Assembly (NCBI GenBank): GCA_012103375.1
Contig: WLWX01000001.1
Coordinates: 2,210,492-2,274,491 of the forward strand
Source: Paracoccaceae bacterium
Lineage (GTDB): Bacteria; Pseudomonadota; Alphaproteobacteria; Rhodobacterales; Rhodobacteraceae
DNA: 64,000 nucleotides
Reading direction: 5' to 3'
Shown: in pieces, positions 887 to 61,849 of the stretch
Position numbering within the stretch: the first letter of the stretch is position 1
Layout: each line of letters starts with the position of its first letter
Program-made: the position numbers and the translations under genes
The notes under the pieces: model-generated
Told to the model about the DNA's origin: nothing
Databases searched by the model: none
Seen by the model: only the letters and a program-made list of their open reading frames with translations

Positions 887-960
887 TGGAGGCGAGTATG
901 AGAATCGAACTCATGTACACGGATTTGCAATCCGCTGCGTAACCACTCCGCCAACTCGCC
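887..960 (-). tRNA. tRNA-Cys (anticodon GCA), CCA encoded
   Basis: The reverse complement folds by eye as a cloverleaf: acceptor GGCGAGT/ACTCGCC, anticodon stem GCGGA/TCCGT with loop TTGCAAA, T arm ATGAG-TTCGATT-CTCAT, 3' TCCA. Length 74 nt. Confidence 0.9.
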
Positions 961-4573: not shown

Positions 4574-5785
4574 ATGATGGACGGCAATTTCGATGACGCG
4601 CTGACCGGCGAACAGAAAATCCGCAACTTCAACATCAACTTCGGCCCGCAACACCCTGCGGCGCATGGGGTTTTGCGTCTGGTGCTGGAGCTGGACGGAG
4701 AGATTGTCGAACGCTGCGACCCCCACATCGGCCTGCTGCACCGTGGCACCGAAAAGCTGATGGAATCGCGGACCTATTTGCAGAACCTGCCGTATTTCGA
4801 CCGGTTGGATTACGTCGCGCCGATGAATCAGGAACATGCCTGGTGTCTGGCCATCGAAAAACTGACCGGAACGCCGGTGCCGCGCCGGGCCAGCTTGATC
4901 CGGGTGCTTTATTCCGAAATTGGCCGTATTCTCAATCACTTGCTGAACGTGACGACCCAGGCGATGGACGTCGGCGCGTTGACACCGCCGCTGTGGGGGT
5001 TCGAGGAGCGCGAAAAACTGATGGTGTTCTATGAACGTGCCTGCGGGGCGCGGCTTCACGCCGCCTATTTCCGCCCCGGCGGCGTGCATCAGGACCTGCC
5101 GCCCGAGCTGATCGACGATATCGAGGCTTGGGGCAAAGAGTTCCCTAAGGCGCTGAATGACATCGACGGGCTGCTGACCGAAAACCGGATATTCAAACAG
5201 CGCAACTGCGACATCGGCGTGGTGAGCGAGCAGGAGATCCTCGACTGGGGCTTCTCAGGCGTGATGGTGCGCGGATCGGGCCTGGCCTGGGATCTGCGGC
5301 GCAGCCAGCCGTATGAGCTTTATGACGAATTCGAATTTCAGATCCCGGTGGGCAAGAACGGCGATTGTTATGATCGCTATCTGTGCCGCATGGCCGAGAT
5401 GCGGGAAAGCCTGAAGATCATCCAGCAGACCATTGATAAACTGCGCGATTGTCCGGGGCCGGTGATGACCCGTGGCAAGATTTCCCCGCCTGATCGGGGC
5501 GAAATGAAAACCTCGATGGAGGCGCTGATCCATCACTTCAAGCTTTACACCGAAGGCTTCCACGTCCCGGCCGGCGAGGTGTATGCCGCCGTCGAAGCCC
5601 CGAAGGGCGAATTCGGCGTCTATCTGGTCGCCGACGGCACCAACAAACCCTACCGCGCCAAACTCCGCGCGCCGGGGTTCCTGCACCTGCAGGCGATGGA
5701 TCACGTCGCGACCGGGCATCAGCTGGCGGATGTGAGCGCGATTATCGGGACGATGGATATCGTGTTCGGAGAAGTGGATCGGTGA
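4574..5785 (+). CDS. nuoD: NADH-quinone oxidoreductase subunit D (49-kDa subunit)
   Basis: ORF 4526-5785 trimmed to ATG 4574 ([36 protein letters not shown]...), preceded by GGAAAGAAGG. Full length, ending [14 protein letters not shown]. Confidence 0.95.
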
Positions 5786-6237
5786 GCAGGCTGCGGATTG
5801 GCCTACTGTTTCTCATCCTCGCCGTAGGCGCTTTGATCGCGACCCCATTTATGCGCGGGACAACCACGCTCTATGAGGTTTCAGTCACCTGTAACATCTC
5901 CATGGAAGCGCTTGACCAACCTAGTGCTGCACTTACCCACGAAAATTCTGTATGTTTCACGAAAGAGTTGGCGGATGAATGGCGCTACATTATTGGTGAA
6001 TACGGCTGGTTCAGCGGCACAACCGTTATCTCGGATTCATTTCGGCCGGACGATCTGTTCGTGGCCATCGCAAATAGCCAAACACGCCTGAGTCCTGGTT
6101 ATGCGCGTTTTTGCAGTGAGATGATTCAGTCTGCTTTGGCAAATCAATCCGCTGAACTTGTTAATATTGCAAGATTGGACCCGCGTGGTGCGGCTTCATT
6201 GACGTGCCCATCCGAGGAGTCCAAAGGTGCCACGTAG
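5782..6237 (+). CDS. hypothetical membrane-anchored/secreted protein (URF between nuoD and nuoE)
   Basis: ORF track, 151 aa. GTG start overlaps the nuoD stop (GTGA). N-terminal hydrophobic segment [16 protein letters not shown]. Visibly lower GC than its neighbours. No family recognised. Confidence 0.5.
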
Positions 6238-6399
6238 CCATGTCTCAGATCAGCTTGATGACTTAATATTCGTTCGCTCCCAATTGGTACTTCGTCGAGA
6301 CGCGGGTAACTTTGTTGCTAACAGCCTGTCGGGCCAACACAATCCTAGGGACCTCGGGTATCTTCCACCGAGCACCGTTTCGATTGCTGTATTGACGGC

Positions 6400-6753
6400 A
6401 TGACCCTCCTCGTCACCCTCTGCGGGATCGTCACGATCCTGATCCTCGGCTACATGGCTTTCTTGTTCTGGCGCGACCCAGAGGACGGGTTGGCGCAGAC
6501 CACTCATCGGGTTGAATTGCTGCCCCGCGTGATGGCCGACCGATACACGGCCTTCGCGATCCTCGCGGTGGTTCTGACGCTTTACGGCAACCTCTGGCTT
6601 ATGGCGGCGCTGTTTGGTGTTTGCGCCTTCATGGGATTTGCGGATGGTCTGATCTACAAGCGGGCCGGGGTGGCGCATATGAAGCACACCGCCTCGGGCA
6701 TCTTGTCGGCGGGGGCTTTGGGGGTCACATTGATCGCGATTGCGCTGGGTTGA
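6400..6753 (+). CDS. small multi-pass membrane protein (URF in nuo cluster)
   Basis: ORF track, 117 aa with about four hydrophobic segments. Same strand as the nuo genes, in the nuoD-nuoE gap. Confidence 0.55.
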   Translation: MTLLVTLCGIVTILILGYMAFLFWRDPEDGLAQTTHRVELLPRVMADRYTAFAILAVVLTLYGNLWLMAALFGVCAFMGFADGLIYKRAGVAHMKHTASGILSAGALGVTLIAIALG

Positions 6754-6834
6754 GGCGCCGCAGATGTTGACACCGCCGCCGCTAGGGGCGACACGGATTA
6801 TCAACAAGAAAGACACGCTTTCCGGAGCCCGCCC

Positions 6835-7998
6835 ATGCTGCGCCGCCTTGCTGCTGAACAACCTGCTGCCTTTGCCTTCACGCCTGCGAACCAGAAATGG
6901 GCCGAAGCGCAGATCACCAAGTTTCCCGAAGGCCGCCAGGCCAGCGCGATCATCCCGCTTTTCTGGCGCGCGCAGGAGCAGGAGGGCTGGCTGTCCCGTC
7001 CGGCGATCGAGCATATCTCGGACATGCTGGGGTTGGCCCATATCCGGGGGCTGGAGGTTGCAACCTTTTACTTCATGTTCCAGCTGCATCTGGTTGGTTC
7101 TGTGGCAAATATCCAGATTTGCGGCACAACCTCGTGCATGATCTGCGGGGCCGAGGATCTGGTCGCCGTCTGTCAGGACAAGATTGCCGCCAAGCCGCAT
7201 ACATTGTCGGCGGATGGCAAGTTTTCCTGGGAAGAGGTTGAGTGTCTGGGCGCCTGCGCAAATGCGCCGATGGCGCAGATCGGCAAGGATTATTACGAAG
7301 ACCTGACCGCCGCCCGGTTGGGAGAGATCATTGACGAACTCGGCGCCGGGAAGGTTCCCGTTCCGGGACCGCAAAACGGGCGCTATGCGGCGGAACCCCT
7401 GTCGGGGCTGACCAGCCTGAAGGATCACGCGGCAGGTCGGGCGCAATATAACGCCTCGGTCCAGCGGGCGGTGGATCTGGGCGAAACGGTCAAGCGCATT
7501 GACGGAACCGAAGAACCGTTCCGCGCGCCCTGGCAGGGTGGGGCAGAACAGAAAACGCCAAAACACGCCGCGCGTGAACGTGGCGAGGGCGTGACCCGGG
7601 CCGAAGCGGATACCCTGGAAACCGCAAGGCCAACCGAAGGCAACGTCGCACCAGCACCCAAGACCAGTGCCGCGCGCCCGAAACCGACACCGGCCAGCGC
7701 GCCGCAGGCAAGCGCGTCCTCACCCGGGACAAAGCCTGAGATGCTCAGCGAATCGCGCGGTGGAGACGCCGATAACCTCAAACATATCAAAGGGGTCGGA
7801 CCGAAACTTGAAGCGTTGCTTCATCGCCTCGGCGTGTTCCATTTCGACCAGATCGCCGGTTGGTCGGCAGACGAAGTCGCCTGGGTGGATGACAACCTGG
7901 AAGGGTTCAAGGGCCGGGTTGAACGCGACAATTGGGTCTCACAGGCGAAAATCCTTGCCGATGGAGGCGAGACAGAATTCTCCGCACGCGCTAAGTAA
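6835..7998 (+). CDS. nuoE: NADH-quinone oxidoreductase subunit E with long C-terminal extension
   Basis: ORF track, 387 aa. 2Fe-2S cysteines [15 protein letters not shown] ... [12 protein letters not shown]. Followed by an Ala/Pro-rich linker and a terminal IKGVGPK...FHFDQIAGW...[14 protein letters not shown] domain. Confidence 0.9.
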
Positions 7999-8064
7999 GG
8001 GTGCTAAGGTATCACCCGGGCGTCTGAATTTCGGATACCTGACAGGGAGAGGACGGAGTTCAAC

Positions 8065-8673
8065 ATGGAAGATGAGAATACCCGCAGATTGGTAATCCCG
8101 GTTGGTGTAGGCATCGTGGTGTTTCTGCTGCTTTGGCTGCTTGGAATATTTGGGTTCTGGGGATCGCTGGCGATCGGTGCGCTGGTCGCATTGCTGATCC
8201 TGGCCTATCAGCGCTTCAGCGCGGCCGATGACGCTGGCGGAATGGGCGCAAGTTCCGGTGGCGCGATGACGCCGCAGTCCGAAGCCCCGCCCACAAGCGC
8301 CGCACCCAAGCCATCCGAACCGACCGAGCCGAACCCGGCCCCCGCACCGCCGCCCAAACCCGAGGCCCCTGCGCCCGAGCCCAAGCCAATGCCAGAACCC
8401 GATCCCGCGCCCGCCGCCCCGTCGTCTGGTGAGGCGGATCGCCCTGCGGCGCTGAGCGAGGCCCGCGCTGGCGGTGCCGACGATCTGACCAAGATCAAGG
8501 GTGTCGGTCCGAAGATGAACGCGATGCTGAACGGCATGGGGTTCTATCACTTCGACCAGATCGCCGCCTGGACCGAAAAGGAAGTCGCCTGGGTGGATGA
8601 TAACCTGGCAGGGTTCAAAGGCCGCGTCTCCCGTGACAAATGGGTCGAACAGGCCCGCGAACTGGCCAAGTAA
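8065..8673 (+). CDS. membrane protein with Pro-rich linker and a NuoE-C-terminal-like domain
   Basis: ORF track, 202 aa. RBS GGGAGAGGACGGAG. Two N-terminal TM segments. The C-terminal ~65 aa ([59 protein letters not shown]) closely parallel the NuoE tail. Confidence 0.65.
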   Translation: MEDENTRRLVIPVGVGIVVFLLLWLLGIFGFWGSLAIGALVALLILAYQRFSAADDAGGMGASSGGAMTPQSEAPPTSAAPKPSEPTEPNPAPAPPPKPEAPAPEPKPMPEPDPAPAAPSSGEADRPAALSEARAGGADDLTKIKGVGPKMNAMLNGMGFYHFDQIAAWTEKEVAWVDDNLAGFKGRVSRDKWVEQARELAK

Positions 8674-8676
8674 GTC

Positions 8677-8898
8677 TTGGCCGATGATCGCCAGCTTGCG
8701 ACTGCCCGGCGGGCGCGCACGGTAAGTCTGGTGATTGCCGGCACGATGCTGCTATGGCTTGCAGCACAGTGGATCGGCCCGGCGGCAGGGATGCCGGGGC
8801 GGTTCGCATTTCTGATCGACCTGGCGGCGCTGGCCGCGTTTAGCTGGGCGATAGTGAACATCTATTGGATCTGGCGGGAACGTCAGAAGGACAGCTGA
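8677..8898 (+). CDS. small two-TM membrane protein (DUF5337-like position between nuoE and nuoF)
   Basis: ORF track, 73 aa with a TTG start and two hydrophobic segments. The family name is from memory of Rhodobacterales nuo annotations and is unverified. Confidence 0.5.
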   Translation: MADDRQLATARRARTVSLVIAGTMLLWLAAQWIGPAAGMPGRFAFLIDLAALAAFSWAIVNIYWIWRERQKDS

Positions 8899-8910
8899 AA
8901 GTTAACGGCA

Positions 8911-10206
8911 ATGCTCGACGATAAAGACCGCATCTTTACAAACATCTACGGGATGCACGACCGGACCCTGGCGGGCGCGAAGGCGCGCGGGCATTGGGAC
9001 GGCACTGCGGGTCTGATCCAGAAGGGTCGCGACTGGATCGTGGAACAGATGAAGGCCTCGGGCTTGCGTGGTCGTGGCGGGGCAGGGTTTCCAACCGGCC
9101 TGAAGTGGAGCTTCATGCCCAAGGAAAGTGACGGCCGCCCGGCGTATCTGGTGGTCAATGCCGACGAATCCGAACCCGGCACCTGCAAAGACCGCGAAAT
9201 CATGCGCCACGATCCGCACACGCTGGTCGAAGGCTGCCTGATCGCCAGTTTCGCGATGAATGCGCACGCCTGCTATATCTACATTCGCGGAGAATACATC
9301 CGCGAGAAGGAAGCGCTTCAGACAGCAATTGACGAGGCGTATGACGCAGGGCTGGTTGGCAAGAACGCCTGTGGCAGCGGATGGGATTTCGACATCTATC
9401 TGACCCACGGCGCGGGCGCCTATATCTGTGGTGAGGAAACCGCGCTTCTGGAAAGTCTTGAAGGCAAGAAAGGCATGCCGCGGATGAAGCCTCCGTTCCC
9501 AGCCGGGGCCGGGCTTTATGGGTGCCCGACGACTGTGAATAATGTGGAATCGATTGCCGTGGTGCCGACGATCCTGCGGCGCGGACCGGAATGGTTCGCA
9601 GGCTTTGGCCGCCCCAACAACGCCGGCACCAAGCTGTTCGCGATCAGCGGTCACGTGAACAACCCCTGCGTCGTTGAAGAGGCGATGAGTATCAGTTTCG
9701 AGGAATTGATCGAAAAGCATTGCGGCGGCATTCGCGGTGGCTGGGACAACCTGAAAGCGGTGATCCCCGGCGGATCATCGGTCCCCTGTATTCGCGGTGA
9801 GCATATGCGCGAGGCGATCATGGATTTCGATTACCTGCGTGAACAGCGCAGCGGCCTTGGGACGGCTGCGGTGATCGTGATGGACAACGACACCGACATC
9901 ATCAAGGCGATCTGGCGGTTGGCGAAGTTCTACAAGCACGAGTCATGCGGCCAGTGCACGCCGTGCCGTGAAGGCACCGGCTGGATGATGCGGGTCATGG
10001 ACCGGCTGGTCACCGGAGAGGCCGAGGTCGAGGAAATCGACATGCTGCTGGACGTGACCAAACAGGTCGAAGGCCACACGATCTGCGCGCTAGGTGACGC
10101 AGCGGCCTGGCCGATCCAGGGCCTGATCCGCAACTTCCGCGATGAAATCGAAGATCGCATCAAGCACAAGCGCACCGGACGGATGAGTGCGATTGCGGCG
10201 GAATAG
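8911..10206 (+). CDS. nuoF: NADH-quinone oxidoreductase subunit F (51-kDa subunit)
   Basis: ORF track, 431 aa. [13 protein letters not shown] (NADH/FMN site) and [12 protein letters not shown] (4Fe-4S). Confidence 0.95.
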
Positions 10207-10253: not shown

Positions 10254-11156
10254 TCAGCAGTTGATAATCTCGTCCAGCGGGCTTCCCGGCGGCGCAGTCG
10301 AGCCTGAGATTTTGTGCCACAGGTGAAGTGCGTCTGTGCGTGGTGTTGTCAGATCCGCGATACAAAGCTCGGGATCGCTCAGCTGGACAGCATGCTGACA
10401 GTAGAGTGGATAGAAGCGATCGATCTTGGACACTTCCGTCCACAGATCCAGACGTTTGACCAGATGCGTAATCAAATGCGGCCCCCAGATACCCCAGCCA
10501 AGCGCCTCGACGCTGACCTTTTTGCCGAAGATGCGAGCGCGTTTCATCCTTCGCTGCCTTGATTCACGAAACCAGGGCGGGATGAAGTGATAATTTTGGG
10601 TCGCCTCACGCAGGAGTTCGGAAAACGGGCTGTTTGGTGGGTAGTTCAGAATGGCTCCGTTGACAAAATTCTCTCGCTCGGCCCCCATGATATAGGGCGT
10701 TTCCGTGATCGGACGCAGGCAAAATATGTCACAGTCCGCATAGGTGCCAAATCCTTCCGCGATAAGCCGATACCGGTAACGGTCTGATCCCAGCCACCCC
10801 GTCCGGCAGGTCGGCGGGGCGTTCGTAGCAATGCATCGTAACGGCGTGCCCGTGGCGCAGGAAGGATCGCACGCAGGCTGCGTGGATGGGGCCGATTGTG
10901 TTGAAAAACTCCGTTTTAGGGCCTGAACGATGATTTTTCTTTCCATGCAGCCCGATCCTAAATTTTTGGCGCGGGGGTCGGCCCAAATCGCCTACATGCG
11001 CTCACGCGCAGCCATGCGCTGTCTCGTGGTCAAAGCTTTCCGACTATTTCGCTTCATAGGTTTTCGCAAGAAATCCGCGACGCTCTGATTTCGGAGTTTT
11101 TCAACACAATCGGCCCAAAACAGACCCGTGCCAGAACATATTGATATCGGCGGGCA
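10254..11156 (-). pseudogene. DXD-motif sugar-binding glycosyltransferase, disrupted by MITE copy 1 plus an internal frame change
   Basis: ATG 11156 encodes MPADINMFWHGSVLG to the right of the MITE. Deleting the element plus one GGCC continues the frame as PIHAACVRSFLRHGHAVTMHCYERPADLPDGV, which then stops at 10729. The remaining ~210 codons (SDRYRYRLIAEGFGTYADCDIFCLRPI ... WGPHLITHLV) lie in another frame (ORF 10254-10946). The switch is near 10781-10806. Confidence 0.65.
10894..11110 (+). mobile_element. MITE-like element, copy 1 (217 bp)
   Basis: GATTGTGTTGAAAAACTCCG ... CGGAGTTTTCAACACAATC. One T shorter in the right TIR than the other copies. Flanked by GGCC/GGCC. Confidence 0.85.
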
Positions 11157-11398
11157 TAAATCTCTCAAACAAAACTGACGCGACCGACTAACAACAAGCG
11201 TCGGGCCGAAGTGCAAGGGCATTCTGCTGCGCCCAGGTCTGCGGTTTCGGTGCATTTGTGGCGGATTGGCGTGAAAGATTTTGCGCAGAAGGCCGCGCGT
11301 ACGAAATACCGGGGTGCGAAACCGCTGGTCTTCGCATTGTCGTCAGGTGACATTGTGGTTTAACCACACCAATCGGACGACACAGAACGCGAACAGTC

Positions 11399-13143: not shown

Positions 13144-13848
13144 GTGGACGCGCCGGACAAAACGACCGAGATCGCGCAGATCAACGTCGCCCGGTTGCTG
13201 CACCCCTGGGGCGACGCGCGGGTTTCGGGGTTTACCAATGCGCTGATTGTGTTGAAAAACTCCGTTTTAGGGCCTGAACGATGATTTTTCTTTCCATGCA
13301 GCCCGATCCTAAATTTTTGGCGCGGGGGTCGGCCCAAATCGCCTACATGCGCTCACGCGCAGCCATGCGCTGTCTCGTGGTCAAAGCTTTCCGACTATTT
13401 CGCTTCATAGGTTTTCGCAAGAAATCCGCGACGCTCTGATTTCGGAGTTTTTCAACACAATCCGCTGAACCGGGTCAGCCGGGTGGCGCATCGCTCGCCG
13501 GGGTTCGTGTGGCAGCTTGAGGTCGGTCAATCGGCCCGCCCTGACAATGATCCCGATCAGGTGTTTGGGGTGGACCCATGTTTGGCTGTGACCCTGTCAG
13601 TCTGGAAAACGGCTGCGGACTTGCGGCGTTTTGTCGAGGATACCGTGCATGGCACATTCACAAAGCGCCGTGCAGAGTGGTTTGTGGCGTCAAACGGGCC
13701 GGCCTACGCGCTGTGGCCGGTAGCGGCTGGGCGTCGCCCGATGCTGGCCGAGGGCAAGGCGCGGCTAGAGGATCTGGCAAAGAACGGCTCAACCGCGCGC
13801 GCGTTTGATTTTGAATGGGTTGAGCGTGCCGACGTGTTGCTGGGTTAG
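13144..13848 (+). pseudogene. DUF3291 domain protein, paralog 2, split by MITE copy 2
   Basis: GTG 13144 encodes VDAPDKTTEIAQINVARLLHPWGDARVSGFTNAL up to the MITE. After the MITE plus CGCT the same frame continues NRVSRVAHRSPGFVWQLEVGQ...LSVWKTAADLRRFVEDTVH...ALWPVAAGRRPMLAEGKARL to stop 13848. The whole aligns with paralog 1. Confidence 0.75.
13245..13462 (+). mobile_element. MITE-like element, copy 2 (218 bp)
   Basis: Perfect 20-bp TIRs. Flanked by CGCT/CGCT. Confidence 0.85.
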
Positions 13849-17685: not shown

Positions 17686-18006
17686 GTGGCCGCATGGAAC
17701 CGGATCGGACCCCGAACTGGGGCAGAATTCGACAACAATGGCCCCGAGTTCATTGCCGAAGCGATGCAAGACTGGTTGAGAAGGGTCGGCATCAAGCCGA
17801 TCGGTATTTACCCGCGATCGTCATGGGAAAACGGATACAACGAGAGGTTCAATGGAACCCTGCGCCGGGAGGTTCTCAGTGCGGAGTGGTTCACTACAAC
17901 GAAGCAGGCCCAGATCGTCATCAATCACTGGCTCAGGCAGTACAATCACACGCGCCCTCACCAAGCGCTCAACATCCGACCTCCAATGCCAGAAACTCTT
18001 GTCTGA
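17686..18006 (+). pseudogene. C-terminal fragment of a DDE (rve integrase-core) transposase, IS3/IS481 superfamily
   Basis: ORF track, 106 aa: ...DNNGPEFIAEAMQDWLRRVGIKPIGIYPRSSWENGYNERFNGTLRREVL...WLRQYNHTRPHQALN. Only the last ~100 residues of such a protein are present, and there is no upstream catalytic region. Confidence 0.7.
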
Positions 18007-18084: not shown

Positions 18085-18459
18085 ATGAAACAGAAATCCG
18101 GAACATCGAAAGACGCCGCTGACAAGTTGGTCAGGGGTATCAAGCGGAAGACCCGCAAACACTATTCAGCAGAAGAGAAGATCAGGGTCGTGCTGGCCGG
18201 CCTGCGCGGCGAGGAGAGCATTGCCGCATTGTGCCGCCGCGAGGGCATCGCTGAGAGCCTATACTATTCGTGGTCGAAGGAGTTCCTGGAAGCGGGAAAG
18301 AACCGCTTGGCGGGCGACACGGCACTCCAAGCGACGTCTCCCGAAGTCAAAGAGCTACGGTCGGAATCTGCCGCCCTGAAGGAGGTAGTCGCCGAACTGA
18401 CGCTGGAGAACCGCCTGCTCAAAAAAAGCATGCTCGGGGATGGGGAGGCCGACGCATGA
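18085..18459 (+). CDS. IS3-family transposase OrfA (HTH)
   Basis: ORF 18037-18459 trimmed to ATG 18085: MKQKSGTSKDAADKLVRGIKRKTRKHYSAEEKIRVVLAGLRGEESIAALCRREGIAESLYYSWSKEFLEAGKNRLAGDT, followed by a leucine-zipper-like tail. Confidence 0.8.
   Translation: MKQKSGTSKDAADKLVRGIKRKTRKHYSAEEKIRVVLAGLRGEESIAALCRREGIAESLYYSWSKEFLEAGKNRLAGDTALQATSPEVKELRSESAALKEVVAELTLENRLLKKSMLGDGEADA
18421..18427 (+). other. A7 run, candidate programmed -1 frameshift site of the IS3-family orfAB
   Basis: ctc aaa aaa agc in the orfA frame. The orfB frame is -1 and is open across this point (ORF 18270-19139). Confidence 0.55.
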
Positions 18460-19066
18460 GGTATCCCGCATCCGAGAAGTTTGAAATCATCCGCACGGTG
18501 GAGGCATCCCATCTGCCTACGCGTCAAACCCTGAAGATGCTCGGCATTCCCAGCAGCACCTATTACGACTGGTACGCGCGTTGGAGCGATGGCGGCCTCG
18601 ATGGCCTAGCCGATCGTTCTCCCAAACCTGCGTCGGTCTGGAACCGCATCCCGGACACGGTTCGCGACGATGTCGTCGACTTTGCCCTGGAGCACGAAGA
18701 CCTGACACCGCGCGAGTTGGCGGTCAAATACACCGATGAGAAGCGCTACTTTGTGTCTGAGTCGTCTGTCTATCGCATCCTCAGCGCGGAGGATCTGATC
18801 ACGGCACCAGCCCATGTGGTAATCCGGGCCGCGGATGAGTTCAGGGACAAGACAGTCCGACCGAACGAACTGTGGCAAACCGACTTCACCTATCTCAAGG
18901 TCATCGGCTGGGGCTGGTTCTATCTCAGCACCATCCTTGACGATTACAGCCGGTACATCATCGCCTGGAAGCTCTGCACGACGATGAAGGCCCAGGATGT
19001 CACCGACACGCTGGAGCTGGCGTTGGAAGCCTCAGGCTGCGACAACGCTACGGTCGTGCACAAGCC
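18456..19066 (+). pseudogene. IS3-family transposase OrfB, truncated
   Basis: MRYPASEKFEIIRTVEASHLPTRQTLKMLGIPSSTYYDWY...ELWQTDFTYLKVIGWGWFYLSTILDDYSRYIIAWKL... It ends abruptly at about 19060-19070, where the reading frame fuses to unrelated sequence. Confidence 0.75.
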
Positions 19067-19437
19067 AAGCTCGGCACGCTCGACAAGCAGATCGAGGGCG
19101 TGCTGGAGCGGGTTCTCGGGGCCACCAATGCCACCGTGATCGGAACCTATGAGAAAAAGATCGGCGACCTCGAAAAGGAAAAGGCACGCCTTGGCGATAT
19201 GCTCGACCAACAAGGCGAACCCGGCGGCAGCTTCGAGGAAAAACTAGAACCCGTGCTCGCATTCCTCGCAAACCCCTGGAAACTCTGGGAAACAGGGCAA
19301 ACTAACCTGCGTAGACTGGTCCTGAAACTGACCTTTCCGGGGCGTATTCACTACTGCCGAAATAAGGGTGCTAGAACCCCGGAAATAGCGTTACCGTTCA
19401 AACTGTTAGAAGGGTTTCCAGACCAACGAGTCTGGTT
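19061..19437 (+). pseudogene. 3' fragment of a large serine recombinase (integrative-element recombinase)
   Basis: The frame of ORF 19100-19600 extended upstream reads ...QAKLGTLDKQIEGVLERVLGATNATVIGTYEKKIGDLEKEKARLGDML...LAFLANPWKLWETGQTNLRRLVLKLTFPGRIHYCRNKGARTPEIALPFKLLEG. This coiled-coil plus NPW.LW...R.VLKL.F...RT..L.LPFK tail matches my recollection of large serine recombinases. The frame runs on, antisense, into tRNA-Leu, so the true stop is unclear. Confidence 0.6.
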
Positions 19438-19523
19438 TGGTGCGGGCGGTGGGACTCGAACCCACACGGGGTTACCCCCTTCAGATTTTAAGTCTGATAT
19501 GTCTACCATTCCATCACGCCCGC
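19438..19523 (-). tRNA. tRNA-Leu (anticodon TAA), CCA encoded
   Basis: Reverse complement GCGGGCG-TG-ATGGAATGGTAGACAT-A-TCAGA-CTTAAAA-TCTGA, a long variable arm AGGGGGTAACCCCGT, GTGGG-TTCGAGT-CCCAC, CGCCCGC-A-CCA. Length 86 nt. Confidence 0.9.
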
Positions 19524-19589: not shown

Positions 19590-19807
19590 GATTGTGTTGA
19601 AAAACTCCGTTTTAGGGCCTGAACGATGATTTTTCTTTCCATGCAGCCCGATCCTAAATTTTTGGCGCGGGGGTCGGCCCAAATCGCCTACATGCGCTCA
19701 CGCGCAGCCATGCGCTGTCTCGTGGTCAAAGCTTTCCGACTATTTCGCTTCATAGGTTTTCGCAAGAAATCCGCGACGCTCTGATTTCGGAGTTTTTCAA
19801 CACAATC
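19590..19807 (+). mobile_element. MITE-like element, copy 3 (218 bp)
   Basis: Perfect 20-bp TIRs. Flanked by GGCC/GGCC. Intergenic, 66 nt from the 5' end of tRNA-Leu. Confidence 0.85.
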
Positions 19808-34214: not shown

Positions 34215-35087
34215 CTAGCTGCGCTCGCGTCCCGCAAACCTTGGCAGCATTGCCGAGAAATCGCGCCCGGCGCCGCCCTCGGCCTCGACGAATTGCGCAT
34301 ATAGGTCACGCGCGGCGGCCCCAAGGGGGGTGTCGGCGTCGACCCCTTCGGCAGCCTCCTGCGACAGGCGCAGATCCTTCAGCATCAGATCGGCAGCAAA
34401 GCCGGGTTGATACCCGTTGTCGGCGGGCGAGGTTGGGCCGACGCCGGGGGCCGGGCAGTAGGTATTCATCGACCAGCTTTGCCCGGAAGAGGTTGAAACC
34501 ACGTCGAACATCGCCTGATTGTCAAGGCCCAACTTGTCGGCGAGCGCGAATGCCTCGCACGTTGCGATCATCGTCACACCCAGGATCATGTTGTTGCAGA
34601 TCTTTGCGGCCTGTCCGTTGCCCGCCGGGCCGCAATGTACCGCCCTCTGACCCATCACATCGAACAGCGGACGGACGGTTGCGAATGCCGCATCAGACCC
34701 GCCCACCATGAAAGTCAGCGTCCCAGCCGAGGCCCCGCCGGTGCCCCCGGACACGGGCGCATCCAAGGCATCGACGCCAAAATCCGCCGCCTGCGCCGCG
34801 ACGTCGCGCGCGCTTGTCACATCAACGGTCGAGCAATCCAGATGCACCGCCCCCCGCGCCATCGACGGTAATATTTCGTCGGCCACGGTGCGCAGGATCG
34901 CGCCGTTCGGCAGCATGGTTATGACCACCTCGGCATCCCTGGCTGCATTCGCGGCGCTCTCAGCAGGCGACACGCCCGCTGGGCAGGGGGCGGCGGTGTC
35001 GAACCCGCTGACCTGATGCCCGGCCGCCGCAAGGTTGGCCGCCATCGGTGCGCCCATGTTACCAAGCCCGATAAAGCCGATCTTCAT
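34215..35087 (-). CDS. mmsB: 3-hydroxyisobutyrate dehydrogenase
   Basis: ORF 34215-35339 trimmed to ATG 35087 (MKIGFIGLGNMGAPMAANL...). The upstream 84 codons of the track ORF are read-through from MITE copy 4. Confidence 0.85.
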   Translation of the reverse strand: MKIGFIGLGNMGAPMAANLAAAGHQVSGFDTAAPCPAGVSPAESAANAARDAEVVITMLPNGAILRTVADEILPSMARGAVHLDCSTVDVTSARDVAAQAADFGVDALDAPVSGGTGGASAGTLTFMVGGSDAAFATVRPLFDVMGQRAVHCGPAGNGQAAKICNNMILGVTMIATCEAFALADKLGLDNQAMFDVVSTSSGQSWSMNTYCPAPGVGPTSPADNGYQPGFAADLMLKDLRLSQEAAEGVDADTPLGAAARDLYAQFVEAEGGAGRDFSAMLPRFAGRERS

Positions 35088-36349
35088 GTCTGACCCCCTT
35101 CGAATGTCAGCCCGGTATCGCGCAGCGGCTGCATCATGGCCGCGACCTCGGCCATTTTCACGTCCCGCCAGGAGGCATGCCGCCACATCGGCGTGTCGTC
35201 CCGGTCGATGATCTTGGCGCGGATGCCTTCGATGAAGTCGCCATGTTCCATGGATCGCGCCGTGATGCGAAATTCCTGTTCCAGCGGATTGTGTTGAAAA
35301 ACTCCGTTTTAGGGCCTGAACGATGATTTTTCTTTCCATGCAGCCCGATCCTAAATTTTTGGCGCGGGGGTCGGCCCAAATCGCCTACATGCGCTCACGC
35401 GCAGCCATGCGCTGTCTCGTGGTCAAAGCTTTCCGACTATTTCGCTTCATAGGTTTTCGCAAGAAATCCGCGACGCTCTGATTTCGGAGTTTTTCAACAC
35501 AATCAGCGCATAGCGGATCTGGGGCCGTACGCGCACGCGGTGGATCAACTGCGTTGCGCAGAACAGCGACAGCGGTGCGATCCGTGCCAGTTTTCCGCGC
35601 GTTTGGCGGCTGAAATCGCCGTCGTCTGTTTCAAGCGAGCGCATGATGTCGCCAAAGGTCTCTCCGCCGAAATGGGTGTCGATGGCGGGCTGCATGGCGG
35701 CCAGGTTCGACGCGCCGGGGTCCGTCGCCACCGCGTCCACCGCTGTCCAGTCGCCGGTGTCGACAAGCGCGGCCTTCAACGCGTCCCAGCGGTCCTGGGG
35801 CACGACATAATCCGCGAACCCGGCGTGCACCGCATCCGCTGGCCCCATCCGGTCTGCCGTCAGCCCCAGATACTCGCCGCAGCGCCCGGGTGCCTGCGCC
35901 AGCAGGAGGGAGCCGCCGACGTCCGGCACAAGCCCGATGCCAACCTCTGGTATCGCGATCTTCGAGGTTTCGGCGACGATCCGGTGTGAGGCATGGCACC
36001 CGACCCCAACGCCGCCGCCCATGGTGAAGCCTTGCAAGAAGCTGGCGACGGGCTTCGGAAACTCGAACAGCCGCGCGTTCATCCGGTATTCATCGCGCCA
36101 GAACCGCTGGCCATAGGTGAAATCGCTCGCCAACCCGGCGCGATACATCTCGGTGATGTCGCCGCCCGCACAGAAGCTGCGGCCTTCGCCCTCGATCAGC
36201 AGCATCCTGATGTTTGGATCGTCGGCCCAGCCGACAAGCGCGGCGTCGATGTCCAGACACATCTGATGGGTCAGCGCATTCAGCGCATCAGGGCGGTTCA
36301 GCGTGATGCGGCCAAGCGCACCGTCGCGGCGGATGTGAATGTCACTCAT
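35084..36349 (-). pseudogene. 3-hydroxyisobutyryl-CoA hydrolase (crotonase superfamily), split by MITE copy 4
   Basis: N-terminal part from ATG 36349: MSDIHIRRDGALGRITLNRPDALNAL...EGEGRSFCAGGD...QGFTMGGGVG...RPQIRYAL, up to the MITE. After the MITE plus TSD the same frame continues EQEFRITARSMEHGDFIEGIRAKIIDRDDTPMWRHASWRDV...FEGGQT*, with its stop overlapping the mmsB ATG. Confidence 0.8.
35287..35504 (+). mobile_element. MITE-like element, copy 4 (218 bp)
   Basis: Perfect 20-bp TIRs. Flanked by AGCG/AGCG. Confidence 0.85.
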
Positions 36350-59199: not shown

Positions 59200-59492
59200 G
59201 CTGCGCGAGATTAGTTATTTTCGCAGGCGTGTCGATTGCGAATATCGCGGTCTGACTCTCCATGCGGCAGGGGTGGGCATTTGAAGTGATCCAAACGCAA
59301 ACCGGTCGCCTTACTGGCTTCAATTCAGGCGGTTAAGCCACGCGATCTAACGTTCCTCGCAGCCCATAAAGTCATCGCATCGCCGGATTGCGCAGGCATC
59401 AGTAGGGCCATTCGGTCGGAAGGGTGATGTTGTGCACAACGCCCTCCTCCTGCGCGGTGCACGACAGGCCGCCGATGCTGCTGACCCTGGCT

Positions 59493-59710
59493 GATTGTGT
59501 TGAAAAACTCCGAAATCAGAGCGTCGCGGATTTCTTGCGAAAACCTATGAAGCGAAATAGTCGGAAAGCTTTGACCACGAGACAGCGCATGGCTGCGCGT
59601 GAGCGCATGTAGGCGATTTGGGCCGACCCCCGCGCCAAAAATTTAGGATCGGGCTGCATGGAAAGAAAAATCATCGTTCAGGCCCTAAAACGGAGTTTTT
59701 CAACACAATC
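59493..59710 (-). mobile_element. MITE-like element, copy 5 (218 bp, inverted relative to copies 1-4)
   Basis: Perfect 20-bp TIRs. Flanked by GGCT/GGCC (3 of 4 matching). Confidence 0.85.
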
Positions 59711-61849
59711 GGCCGAAAGCCGCATCTTGCCGCCAAAATACAGCCCCATCCAGTCGGCCTTGTAGATGCCCACACGCGGTCCGGCGGTCTGATACTTGTT
59801 CCATTCCTTGATCATCCAGGGAAACCCGTACCAGTTCACTTGCAGCGACGTTGCGATGGTCACGCTTTCGCCGGGTGCCATCGCGACGTCCAGCGGGAAG
59901 GACGCGCCCTTATACAGCGATCCGATCACATCCTGCGCTGGCAGATCAATCGAACGCGCTGGCTGGGTGCCGATCCACCAACGCTGGGCCGGAAATGACT
60001 TGCTGACAGAGTTCGCGATACTCAGCCCGCATTGCCCGTCCCAATAAAGGTGTTCCGGGCGCGGTGCGACATTGGTGCGGGTCACCTTGACCTGCACATA
60101 GGGCAAGGTGGTTTCTGCCCCCGGCGCCGGGCGCGCAATGACCGTGGGCGGCAGGCACAACGGTTCAGACCCGTGGCGATGCGCCTCCTTCTCGTCGACG
60201 CAGCCGGGCATATCGCTGGTGCGCTTCAACTCGTCAGCGAAATGCGACAACCCGGCGCGCAGGGCGTCTTCGCAGGGACCGATGCAGGGCACGCCGGTGC
60301 GAGATTCGATTTCCGCGACCGCCAGTTCAACGGCATAGTCGACGCCCTTGTCTATCAACTCGTTGTAATTCGGGATCGTTGGCGGCAGGCCTAGGGCCGA
60401 GGCTCCGGCGGCAACGGCCACGTCGGCCACGCCTTCGCAGAACGCCTCGATATCGCTTTCATTGGCCAGTTCGGCCAGCGCTTTGCATTGCAGCCCGAAG
60501 GGCGTGTAATCCATGATGATATCGCTGGCCAGTTCCAGCAACGATTCATAAGCCCCGCCCAGCCAGTCAAAGCTGTCCAGCGCCCAGTTGGCGAAGTCTT
60601 CCAGGCTTTCGACGCGGGTTCCCTCGCCGCGATATGGTGCCGGGCAGAACTCCTTCCCGATCGGGTACAGGTCTTTCCCGATCGGGTACAGGTCTTTGTG
60701 AATGTCGCTGATGAACGGGCTGACGCCTTCGAATTTGTGCCCGGCGACCACGACGCAGCCCCAGCGACCTTCGTCATAGAAATCGGGAAGTTTGAAATCC
60801 GTGATCTCGACCTCGAACAGGTCCAGAGGGCTGGTGTCGAATTCGATGAAGGTGAAGTCAGGCGGGGCCGGTTCGTTTGCGCCGTACAGCACCTGAATCG
60901 GATTGGTGGGCAACGCGCCGAAATCCGAGCCGATCAATTGGCGCAGCGGGATTACCCGGACATAGACGTTCGACAGGTAATCGAAGGGCGAGTTTGCCAC
61001 CGCCGCGTCCAGATCGACGCGGAAAGTCTGCTTACCGCCGGACACCAGGCCAAAGTCCAGCAATCCGGTGAATTTTGCGTCATTGGCGTTGCCCTGAAAC
61101 GCCGGAAAGGGGCGGTCGCTGACCTGCCACATGCCCGCCTTGGCCCAGGGAATGGCCGTCAGATTGGACAGAAACTGTTCGGACTTGGCGTTGCCGGGCG
61201 TTACCTTCATCGGCGCGTCCGTGGCGACATCACAGCCCGAGGTCTGGCACCAGAACAGCTCCGCCCCTTTGGCGAAGAATTTCAGCGGAATGATCGGCAC
61301 AAACGGTTCGTCCGCGGGCTTGCTGCCGGGACTGACCACGCTGACCAGCGGGCGCGGCGCGGGCCGCGGAGAGGTCGTGGGCGCGGTCTTCGGGGCCTGC
61401 GGCGAGGGGGTCTCGGCCTGTTGCGGCGCAGGCACCTTTGGAATGGGTTTGGGCGTCGGTTGTGGCTGCGGGGCGGGGGCCGGTTGCGGGGCGGGGGCCG
61501 GTTGCGGCGCGGGTTCCGCGACACGCTTGACGCAAAGGATCGACCCGAAGGCTTGGCACTGCGGTCCGTTGCACAGCATCCCGTCACCGAAAATCACCGA
61601 TTGCACGCCGCGCGCCCCGGCGCGGGGGTCGTGCTGGAATGTCTGGGCCCGGTCAAATCCGTTCTGGGTACAAAATAGATCGGCGGCTGGCTGGCCGCAG
61701 GGGCCGTTTTGATGTTTGCACCAGTTCAGCGTCACACCGCGCACGGTCGGCGGCTGGAAATTTCGGGGCTCGGTGGCGGCGATTGCCAGGGTCGGGACCA
61801 GCAGAATCCCAAGCGTTAGGGCGGTCAGAAAGCGGCTGAGTGGGGGCAT
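59678..61849 (-). CDS. orphan secreted protein (~720 aa as it now reads), 3' end replaced by MITE copy 5
   Basis: ORF 59678-61903 trimmed to ATG 61849 (MPPLSRFLTALTLGILLVPTLAIAA signal). Cys-rich ~80-aa N-domain, (PAPQPA)n linker, and a ~560-aa region with no recognised motif. The last 10 codons (DCVEKLRFRA*) are MITE sequence. The displaced original 31-codon end lies at 59399-59492. Confidence 0.65.
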   Translation of the reverse strand: MPPLSRFLTALTLGILLVPTLAIAATEPRNFQPPTVRGVTLNWCKHQNGPCGQPAADLFCTQNGFDRAQTFQHDPRAGARGVQSVIFGDGMLCNGPQCQAFGSILCVKRVAEPAPQPAPAPQPAPAPQPQPTPKPIPKVPAPQQAETPSPQAPKTAPTTSPRPAPRPLVSVVSPGSKPADEPFVPIIPLKFFAKGAELFWCQTSGCDVATDAPMKVTPGNAKSEQFLSNLTAIPWAKAGMWQVSDRPFPAFQGNANDAKFTGLLDFGLVSGGKQTFRVDLDAAVANSPFDYLSNVYVRVIPLRQLIGSDFGALPTNPIQVLYGANEPAPPDFTFIEFDTSPLDLFEVEITDFKLPDFYDEGRWGCVVVAGHKFEGVSPFISDIHKDLYPIGKDLYPIGKEFCPAPYRGEGTRVESLEDFANWALDSFDWLGGAYESLLELASDIIMDYTPFGLQCKALAELANESDIEAFCEGVADVAVAAGASALGLPPTIPNYNELIDKGVDYAVELAVAEIESRTGVPCIGPCEDALRAGLSHFADELKRTSDMPGCVDEKEAHRHGSEPLCLPPTVIARPAPGAETTLPYVQVKVTRTNVAPRPEHLYWDGQCGLSIANSVSKSFPAQRWWIGTQPARSIDLPAQDVIGSLYKGASFPLDVAMAPGESVTIATSLQVNWYGFPWMIKEWNKYQTAGPRVGIYKADWMGLYFGGKMRLSADCVEKLRFRA
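60654..60695 (-). repeat. perfect 21-bp tandem duplication (ttcccgatcgggtacaggtct x2 on + strand) inside the orphan protein gene
   Basis: Read directly from the sequence. It encodes KDLYPIG-KDLYPIG and is in frame. Confidence 0.9.

Follow-up and report, generated by a model that had tools for sequence, protein, structure and literature searches.

A 218-bp miniature inverted-repeat element with IS1182-type ends, present in identical copies, several of them gene-splitting, in a sponge-associated Paracoccaceae bacterium

The DNA analysed here, hereafter the window, is a stretch of 64,000 nucleotides from the genome of a Paracoccaceae bacterium (assembly GCA_012103375.1, contig WLWX01000001.1, positions 2,210,492 to 2,274,491 of the forward strand), in which the same 218-bp sequence occurs five times. 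Four copies lie in the forward orientation (copy 1 at 10894-11111, copy 2 at 13245-13462, copy 3 at 19590-19807 and copy 4 at 35287-35504) and one, copy 5, is inverted (59493-59710, minus strand). Copy 2 splits a DUF3291 gene, copy 4 lies within an ECH_2 gene, copies 1 and 5 overlap the ends of two open reading frames (ORFs), and copy 3 is intergenic. We interpret the repeated sequence as a non-autonomous transposon, that is, a miniature inverted-repeat transposable element (MITE), which very probably belongs to a clade of insertion sequences (ISs) of the IS1182 family, and we use its copies to examine how it inserted and what it did to the genes of its host.

The 20-mer GATTGTGTTGAAAAACTCCG matches the window ten times, as five inverted pairs 218 bp apart (chance expectation in the window of 0, from 100 shuffles), and forms a terminal inverted repeat (TIR) that is perfect over 20 bp in all five copies; in copy 2 the two TIRs occupy 13245-13264 and 13443-13462. 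When the five copies were aligned together with 30 bp of flank on each side, all 218 columns of the element were invariant (100% identity). Each copy is flanked by a 4-bp direct repeat, the expected form of a target-site duplication (TSD): GGCC for copy 1 (10890-10893 and 11112-11115), CGCT for copy 2 (13241-13244 and 13463-13466), GGCC for copy 3 and AGCG for copy 4 (35283-35286 and 35505-35508). These four are perfect, and copy 5, with GGCT at 59489-59492 and GGCC at 59711-59714 (in window orientation), agrees in three of four bases. The element is poorer in G+C than the window (49.5% vs 61.6%), and no other large repeat family was found in the window. Its sole ORF, which gene finders call, has 52 codons (13281-13439 in copy 2, plus strand) and is probably spurious, since the frame is broken by stops in 11 of 29 related elements. 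A length below about 500 bp, the lack of a transposase gene, TIRs, a duplication of fixed length and dispersed copies are the features by which bacterial MITEs are recognised. A repeat of the REP/BIME type (a short imperfect palindrome spread by RAYT proteins) was considered and rejected, given the discrete TIRs, the TSD and an empty site in a relative (see below). The first-pass annotation of this DNA, made from the letters alone, had already described five copies of a 218-bp element, the perfect 20-bp TIR, exactly the flanking 4-mers given above and the absence of any transposase-sized ORF, and had read the element as a MITE, all of which the 20-mer search, the alignment and the comparison with related elements confirm. 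Its coordinates were exact for four copies, copy 1 ending at 11111 and not at 11110, and the single missing T that it reported in copy 1 does not exist, so that the copies are identical rather than near-identical.

The effect of the insertions on the host genes was examined by removing each element together with one copy of the TSD and seeking the restored gene. At copy 4, gene callers let the N-terminal part of the ECH_2 gene (35505-36349, minus strand) run on for 19 codons inside the MITE, to a product of 300 aa, while the C-terminal part (35084-35286, minus strand) is called as a 55-aa fragment. Excision yields a protein of 347 aa, 3-hydroxyisobutyryl-CoA hydrolase-like, which covers ECH_2 positions 2-334 of 335 in a single match (344.6 bits). 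At copy 2, a 5' part of about 34 codons (13144-13244, plus strand) and a 3' part (13463-13848, plus strand; annotated by the callers as 13483-13848, 121 aa) join on excision into a frame of 160 codons that matches DUF3291 positions 1-137 of 139, again in one stretch (124.5 bits). Copy 5 provides the last 10 codons and the stop of a 723-codon ORF without a Pfam family (59678-61849, minus strand), whose own last ~30 codons have been swapped for these 10 MITE-encoded ones. Copy 1 lies near the 5' end of a putative 230-codon ORF, also without a Pfam family (10254-10946, minus strand), the annotated start and first 53 nt of which are inside the element; across the reconstructed junction, 288 codons can be read without a stop. 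By eye, this ORF (10254-11160) looks glycosyltransferase-like, with no Pfam match and with its N-terminal 14 codons beyond the MITE, and it seems to be frameshifted about 100 nt from the junction. Copy 3 lies 66 bp from a tRNA-Leu(taa) gene (19438-19523, minus strand) and adjoins fragments of an IS3/IS481-like transposase. Evidence on the order of events comes from a sister contig (L151), where the gene for an ECH_2 protein 84% identical to the reconstructed one is uninterrupted at the orthologous position and has a single copy of the 4-mer; based on this empty site, the insertion of copy 4 is derived.

Contigs WLWE01000199 and WLWE01001283 (GCA_012267655.1) match the window at 100% identity, as do the MGnify scaffolds STOR20-1_SAMN12718690/91; the matching accessions, together with JAAHTG, stem from metagenomic work on the sponge Mycale hentscheli by two independent studies (PMC7157528, PMC7196800), in neither of which a term search brought up MITEs, insertion sequences or Rhodobacter. 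Additional copies were gathered with an internal 22-mer of the element and with the exact 52-aa product of its internal ORF. The number of distinct, complete insertions thereby rose to 29, and their comparison with the window copy showed neither a mismatch nor a gap over 29 x 218 bp, where "no differences" between copies is really "too similar to resolve". One 69-kb contig carries at least five copies, 15 of the collected contigs stop within a copy, the usual sign of an assembly interrupted by a repeat, and database records place the exact 52-aa product on 121 contigs, a proxy for the copy number. The five copies in 64 kb correspond to about one per 13 kb, a density which, extrapolated to 4 Mb, would give a few hundred copies. 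At six sites outside the window, a single Pfam domain (Glycos_transf_1, GatZ_KbaZ-like, ECH_1, PfkB, Glyco_tranf_2_4 or AMP-binding) continues through the reconstructed junction. This brings the insertions that split a recognisable gene to at least 8 out of 29, and the element therefore creates pseudogenes.

Repeats of this length do break short-read contigs, and graph assemblers do collapse near-identical ones, so we asked whether the copies could have been produced by assembly or polishing. This is the least probable of the explanations that we weighed, and we regard it as very remote: the assemblies of both sponge studies (WLWE/WLWI and JAAHTG/JAAHTH), which are independent of each other, and the MGnify re-assemblies contain the same insertions with the same unique flanks, related elements exist in isolate genomes, and artefacts do not produce target-site duplications or the sequence-specific target described below.

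The assignment to a family came from the ends of the element. A scan for the exact TIR, using one genome per GTDB species, matched at least 120 stretches, in Rhodobacterales, Rhizobiales, Caulobacterales, Sphingomonadales and Rhodospirillales, in the Betaproteobacteria Variovorax, Burkholderia, Ramlibacter and Thiobacillus, and in single metagenome-assembled genomes (MAGs) labelled Steroidobacteraceae and Rubricoccaceae. When each match was paired with an inverted partner (up to 5 mismatches permitted), two kinds of element emerged: short ones of 129-247 bp, falling into size classes of about 129, 138, 158, 166, 169, 190 and 217-219 bp, and thirteen long ones of 1503-1589 bp, in which one end is exact to the TIR and the other has 1-5 mismatches. 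Each of the 1.5-kb elements has a single ORF of 459-467 aa, with the domains DUF772 and DDE_Tnp_1_6/DDE_Tnp_1, and its protein reaches 420-429 bits on the NCBIfam model NF033551, "IS1182 family transposase", for which the cut-off is 270. Plasmids carry homologous elements whose annotation is IS1182 family and, in some cases, ISMno9-, ISShsp2- or ISGdi16-like; the seven plasmid copies that we read have the same type of end (GATTnTGTTGAAAAAC... or TATTTTGTTGAAAAAC...), with a 4-bp duplication in six. A copy on the Yoonia plasmid pSS15 agrees with the TIR at 19 of 20 bases. The 218-mer itself has no match among the PLSDB plasmids, and the TIR string was not found in the searchable literature. As a side observation, the transposases of this clade match several hundred Klebsiella and Escherichia plasmids at less than 60% identity, and one stretch of the genome scan (L086:475-2119) holds three elements of 168-169 bp with the same TIR, in direct orientation and spaced 711 and 766 bp start to start.

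The flanks of the ISs and of their MITEs revealed a target. The 4-bp duplication, usually RGCC/GGCC, lies at the centre of a palindromic site, and about 19 nt on each side form the consensus gCgAAcGtCcGCTtTG GGCC CAaAGCgGaCaTTcGc (~36 bp, about 15.5 bits). A weight matrix was built from other species only and was used to score every position of the MITE-free window (63 kb). Against a background with a mean of -17.8 and a 99.9th percentile of 5.1 bits, the five reconstructed insertion sites score 22.6, 13.1, 7.7, 6.5 and -0.5 bits. The site of copy 3 is the best position in the whole MITE-free window (22.6 bits); that of copy 4 ranks about second (a fraction of 3e-5 of the positions scores as high), and those of copies 1, 5 and 2 follow with 3e-4 (top 0.03%), 6e-4 (top 0.06%) and 1e-2 (top 1%), respectively. 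Four of the five sites are thus within the top 0.1% of window positions according to a matrix that owes nothing to this organism, and this lends independent support to the view that the MITE copies were inserted here by the enzyme family that inserts the ISs. The palindromic flanks could alternatively have been a separate, REP-like repeat, a possibility that we rejected after finding no uninterrupted consensus in the window (allowing up to 3 mismatches) or in 143 loci. The conservation of the flanks ends about 19 nt from the element, and we read them as a target preference and not as a repeat family. The target half-site is alike in 14 of 20 bases to positions 10-29 of the element's own end, a resemblance to the TIR that is suggestive only.

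Taken together, the ends and the targets are best explained by mobilisation in trans. An IS1182 transposase of the DDE type, encoded elsewhere in the genome or formerly present in it, would bind both TIRs of the MITE; integration would proceed by 4-bp staggered cuts centred on RGCC at palindrome-like sites, and the filling of the resulting gaps would yield the TSD. To our knowledge, almost no mechanistic work exists on IS1182, which is a large family.

A perfect 4-bp TSD flanks 22 of the 29 copies of this MITE, comparable elements in other species having one in 62 of 89 cases (most commonly AGCC, CGCC, GACC or GGCC). Six of the remaining copies (window copy 5 and the insertions at L141:1911, L143:58, L143:2263, L158:1465 and L161:1465) have a single mismatch, always at position 1 or 4 of the duplication, and in all six the deviating base is the one touching the element end (by our reading of the flanks). 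The same holds for position in other species, where ten of ten single-mismatch TSDs (elements in L002-L076) deviate at position 1 or 4; by our own arithmetic, 16 of 16 mismatches at the outer two positions would have a probability of about 1.5e-5 if mismatches were spread evenly over the four. The last copy, in L160, has no TSD whatever, and flank exchange by recombination is possible there. As a general cause of the imperfect duplications, exchange of flanks between copies is contradicted at L141:1911, the two flanks of which make up one 397-codon frame. The mismatches could instead reflect one nucleotide of donor flank carried along on the non-transferred strand, or gene-conversion tracts spilling 1 nt beyond the element.

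Gene conversion also figures in a rival history for the whole set, in which the copies would be long-established, fixed repeats whose identity is maintained by such conversion (concerted evolution), with no recent burst. The identity of 29 out of 29 copies, the absence of empty alleles within the sponge samples and the junction-adjacent position of the single-base TSD departures are all what such a process would give. It fits poorly with the sister contig that lacks the copy-4 insertion, with split genes that rebuild into full-length, stop-free frames with complete Pfam matches (unexpected after a long residence as pseudogenes) and with insertion sites that agree with the transposase target model, and we consider it improbable. 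The data support a very recent amplification whose insertions look fixed within the sponge samples.

Short elements of this length are not confined to one organism. In about 25 Rhodobacterales species, elements of 217-219 bp are constant in length and polarity and have in common an internal 16-mer, GAGGGG(G/T)TCGGCCAAA, which starts 77-79 nt from the left end (region 13321-13340 in copy 2), their interior being otherwise variable; other elements of 218-219 bp, a group from Caulobacterales and Beijerinckiaceae MAGs, lack the 16-mer. This conservation, together with a predicted RNA fold of -77.1 kcal/mol that is more stable than that of shuffled sequences (z = -4.3), is what could be expected if the element were a functional module (a small structured RNA, a 52-aa peptide or a regulatory cassette) spread by selection. 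We find this less probable still than concerted evolution. The fold energy stems from the TIR stem: RNAalifold supports that stem only, with a compensatory change in just 1 of 19 pairs and no conserved internal helix. In Rfam, the only window matches at gathering thresholds are two tRNAs, and nothing matches the element. Coding was rejected on the stops that both the 52-codon ORF and the frame through the motif (..ARGSA..) hold in the 11 of 29 related elements already mentioned. A search for promoter-like sites was negative, and the only site resembling a terminator is in the flank, outside the element. Many copies, moreover, destroy genes. The 16-mer was also considered as a relic of the ribosome-binding site and start of a transposase, which the region resembles by eye, but local-alignment z-scores that average about 0 against 18 full-length ISs do not support this; there is, in short, no conserved ORF, RNA helix or demonstrable IS homology to account for its conservation.

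Several known systems help to place the element. The closest is MITEPye1 of Paracoccus yeei (Front Microbiol 2024, PMC11578231), a 159-bp element with an 18-bp TIR that has been deposited in ISfinder; its TIRs resemble the ends of the IS1182-family ISPye18, its direct repeats are 4 bp long, and a long stem-loop is predicted for it. Each chromosome has 1-3 intergenic copies, which are 96-100% identical and for which mobilisation in trans was proposed (PMC11578231). Both are non-coding MITEs of Rhodobacterales hosts with IS1182-like TIRs and 4-bp repeats, and our genome scan found a 157-160-bp size class that carries the TIR of the window element. They differ in length (159 vs 218 bp) and in abundance and location, the window element being present about once per 13 kb and in many cases inside genes. 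The sequences of MITEPye1 and ISPye18 are not in the text or supplements of that paper (PMC11578231), and ISPye18 was not among the top plasmid matches; compared by description, the window element is of the same kind and probably belongs to the same TIR group. With the 1.5-kb IS1182 elements (ISMno9-, ISShsp2- and ISGdi16-like) it shares the 20-bp ends (0-6 mismatches), the 4-bp TSD and the palindromic flanks, and it differs from them in lacking the transposase and in matching over only about 20-46 bp per end.

The staphylococcal IS1272 and TnSha1, also of the IS1182 family, insert into inverted-repeat or hairpin targets, and a preference of IS1182 members for palindromes and hairpins is further attributed to a 2015 review by Siguier and colleagues (PMC4923244, PMC5678879). 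IS1272, however, has no sequence preference and no TSD and deletes part of the hairpin, whereas the clade described here uses a sequence-specific palindrome and makes a 4-bp TSD. Among other systems, those with long symmetric target consensuses include the IS30 family, which belongs to another transposase family. IS30 elements target palindromic hot spots as well as their own inverted repeats. The Correia elements duplicate TA and have 26-bp TIRs. Correia/NEMIS and ERIC elements are, like ours, short, multi-copy and hairpin-capable, with TIRs and a TSD, but show no sequence relationship to it, and Rfam gave no match to elements of these types in the window.

We assign a probability of about 90% to the conclusion that the element is a MITE belonging to this clade of the IS1182 family, after considering the observations that weigh against it or against a simple account of its spread. 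The element aligns with the sampled full-length ISs only over its first 20-46 bp and last ~20 bp; its interior has no significant similarity to any of them (local-alignment z-scores against 18 ISs average about 0), so that an origin by simple internal deletion is not shown, and its true parent may simply be unsampled. No IS1182 transposase was found by tblastn in the window or in 310 kb from this organism, and the 4.01-Mb contig contributed nothing to the 120 top-scoring homologues of a close IS1182 transposase. Seven of the 29 copies lack a perfect TSD. The copies may also be less perfectly identical than they look, since assemblies of short reads by De Bruijn graphs merge repeats that are nearly identical into a consensus, and one variant of the internal ORF product does exist (P0122). 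Finally, none of the 29 sites is seen both occupied and empty in the sponge samples; every checkable site is occupied, and current or ongoing activity is accordingly not demonstrated.

Several statements of the first-pass annotation can now be revisited. It had held that the parent IS could not be assigned, and this no longer stands: the ends common to the 1.5-kb ISs give the family, IS1182. Its proposal of mobilisation in trans by an IS outside the window is supported, no transposase having been found within it, and so is that of insertion into otherwise intact ORFs, which excision restores for ECH_2 and DUF3291. From its "recent or ongoing burst", the 29 identical insertions uphold the first adjective, and the occupancy of all checkable sites leaves the second without backing. 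It could not tell whether the family was already catalogued; a related MITE is published (MITEPye1), at 159 bp instead of 218 bp. The follow-up it had proposed comprised a genome-wide check of copies and TSDs, for which the collected contigs gave the 29 distinct insertions and 22 perfect duplications reported above, a search for an IS with matching 20-bp ends, met with in the 1.5-kb IS1182 elements of other genomes, an empty site in a relative, present in the sister contig at the copy-4 position, and an Rfam search, which gave no match on the element even at E <= 1.

The remainder of the window holds further features. The nuo cluster consists only of nuoD (4574-5785), nuoE (6835-7998) and nuoF (8911-10206), with no nuoG downstream; upstream of these genes are an M23 peptidase gene and a Lyx_isomer gene split into pieces of 39 and 193 aa. 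The nuoE gene is unusually long (387 aa), and a direct repeat of 212 nt, 72% identical, links its 3' part (7735-7946) with the next ORF, of 202 aa (8443-8654). The cluster at 4574-10206 looks rearranged or broken. Between 17686 and 19523 lie degenerate remains of mobile elements: an rve_3 fragment (17686-18006), a truncated IS3/IS481-like transposase (18270-19139, covering only rve profile positions 3-64 of 102) and, by eye, a frame resembling a recombinase C-terminus that reaches the tRNA-Leu(taa) gene, directly after which copy 3 is found. At the left edge, the window has a tRNA-Cys(gca) gene (887-960, minus strand), and in contig L126 a phage-type integrase gene lies just upstream of the window start and reaches into its first ~720 bases; positions 1-960 may be the edge of an integrated element.

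For the host, the MITE accounts for gene fragments that would otherwise be annotated as separate genes, such as the 300-aa and 55-aa pieces of ECH_2 and the truncated DUF3291, and it is the reason that contigs assembled from short reads of this genome are interrupted about once per 13 kb. A gene-splitting burst of this kind is in keeping with a population bottleneck in the recent past, or with relaxed selection, in a bacterium that is associated with a sponge, and the genome would be useful for studying early genome erosion. For the family, the 20-bp end, the 4-bp TSD, the palindromic target and the junction-adjacent mismatches are testable leads for transposon biology. We would go further only tentatively, with a proposal that we think has the odds against it: the clade may read a ~36-bp palindrome whose half-sites mimic the inner part of its TIR, and may carry with it one nucleotide of donor flank on the non-transferred strand. 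If both were true, the identical copies would be a natural record of the transposition chemistry of the IS1182 family and, at the same time, an instance of gene loss brought about by MITEs in a sponge-associated bacterium.

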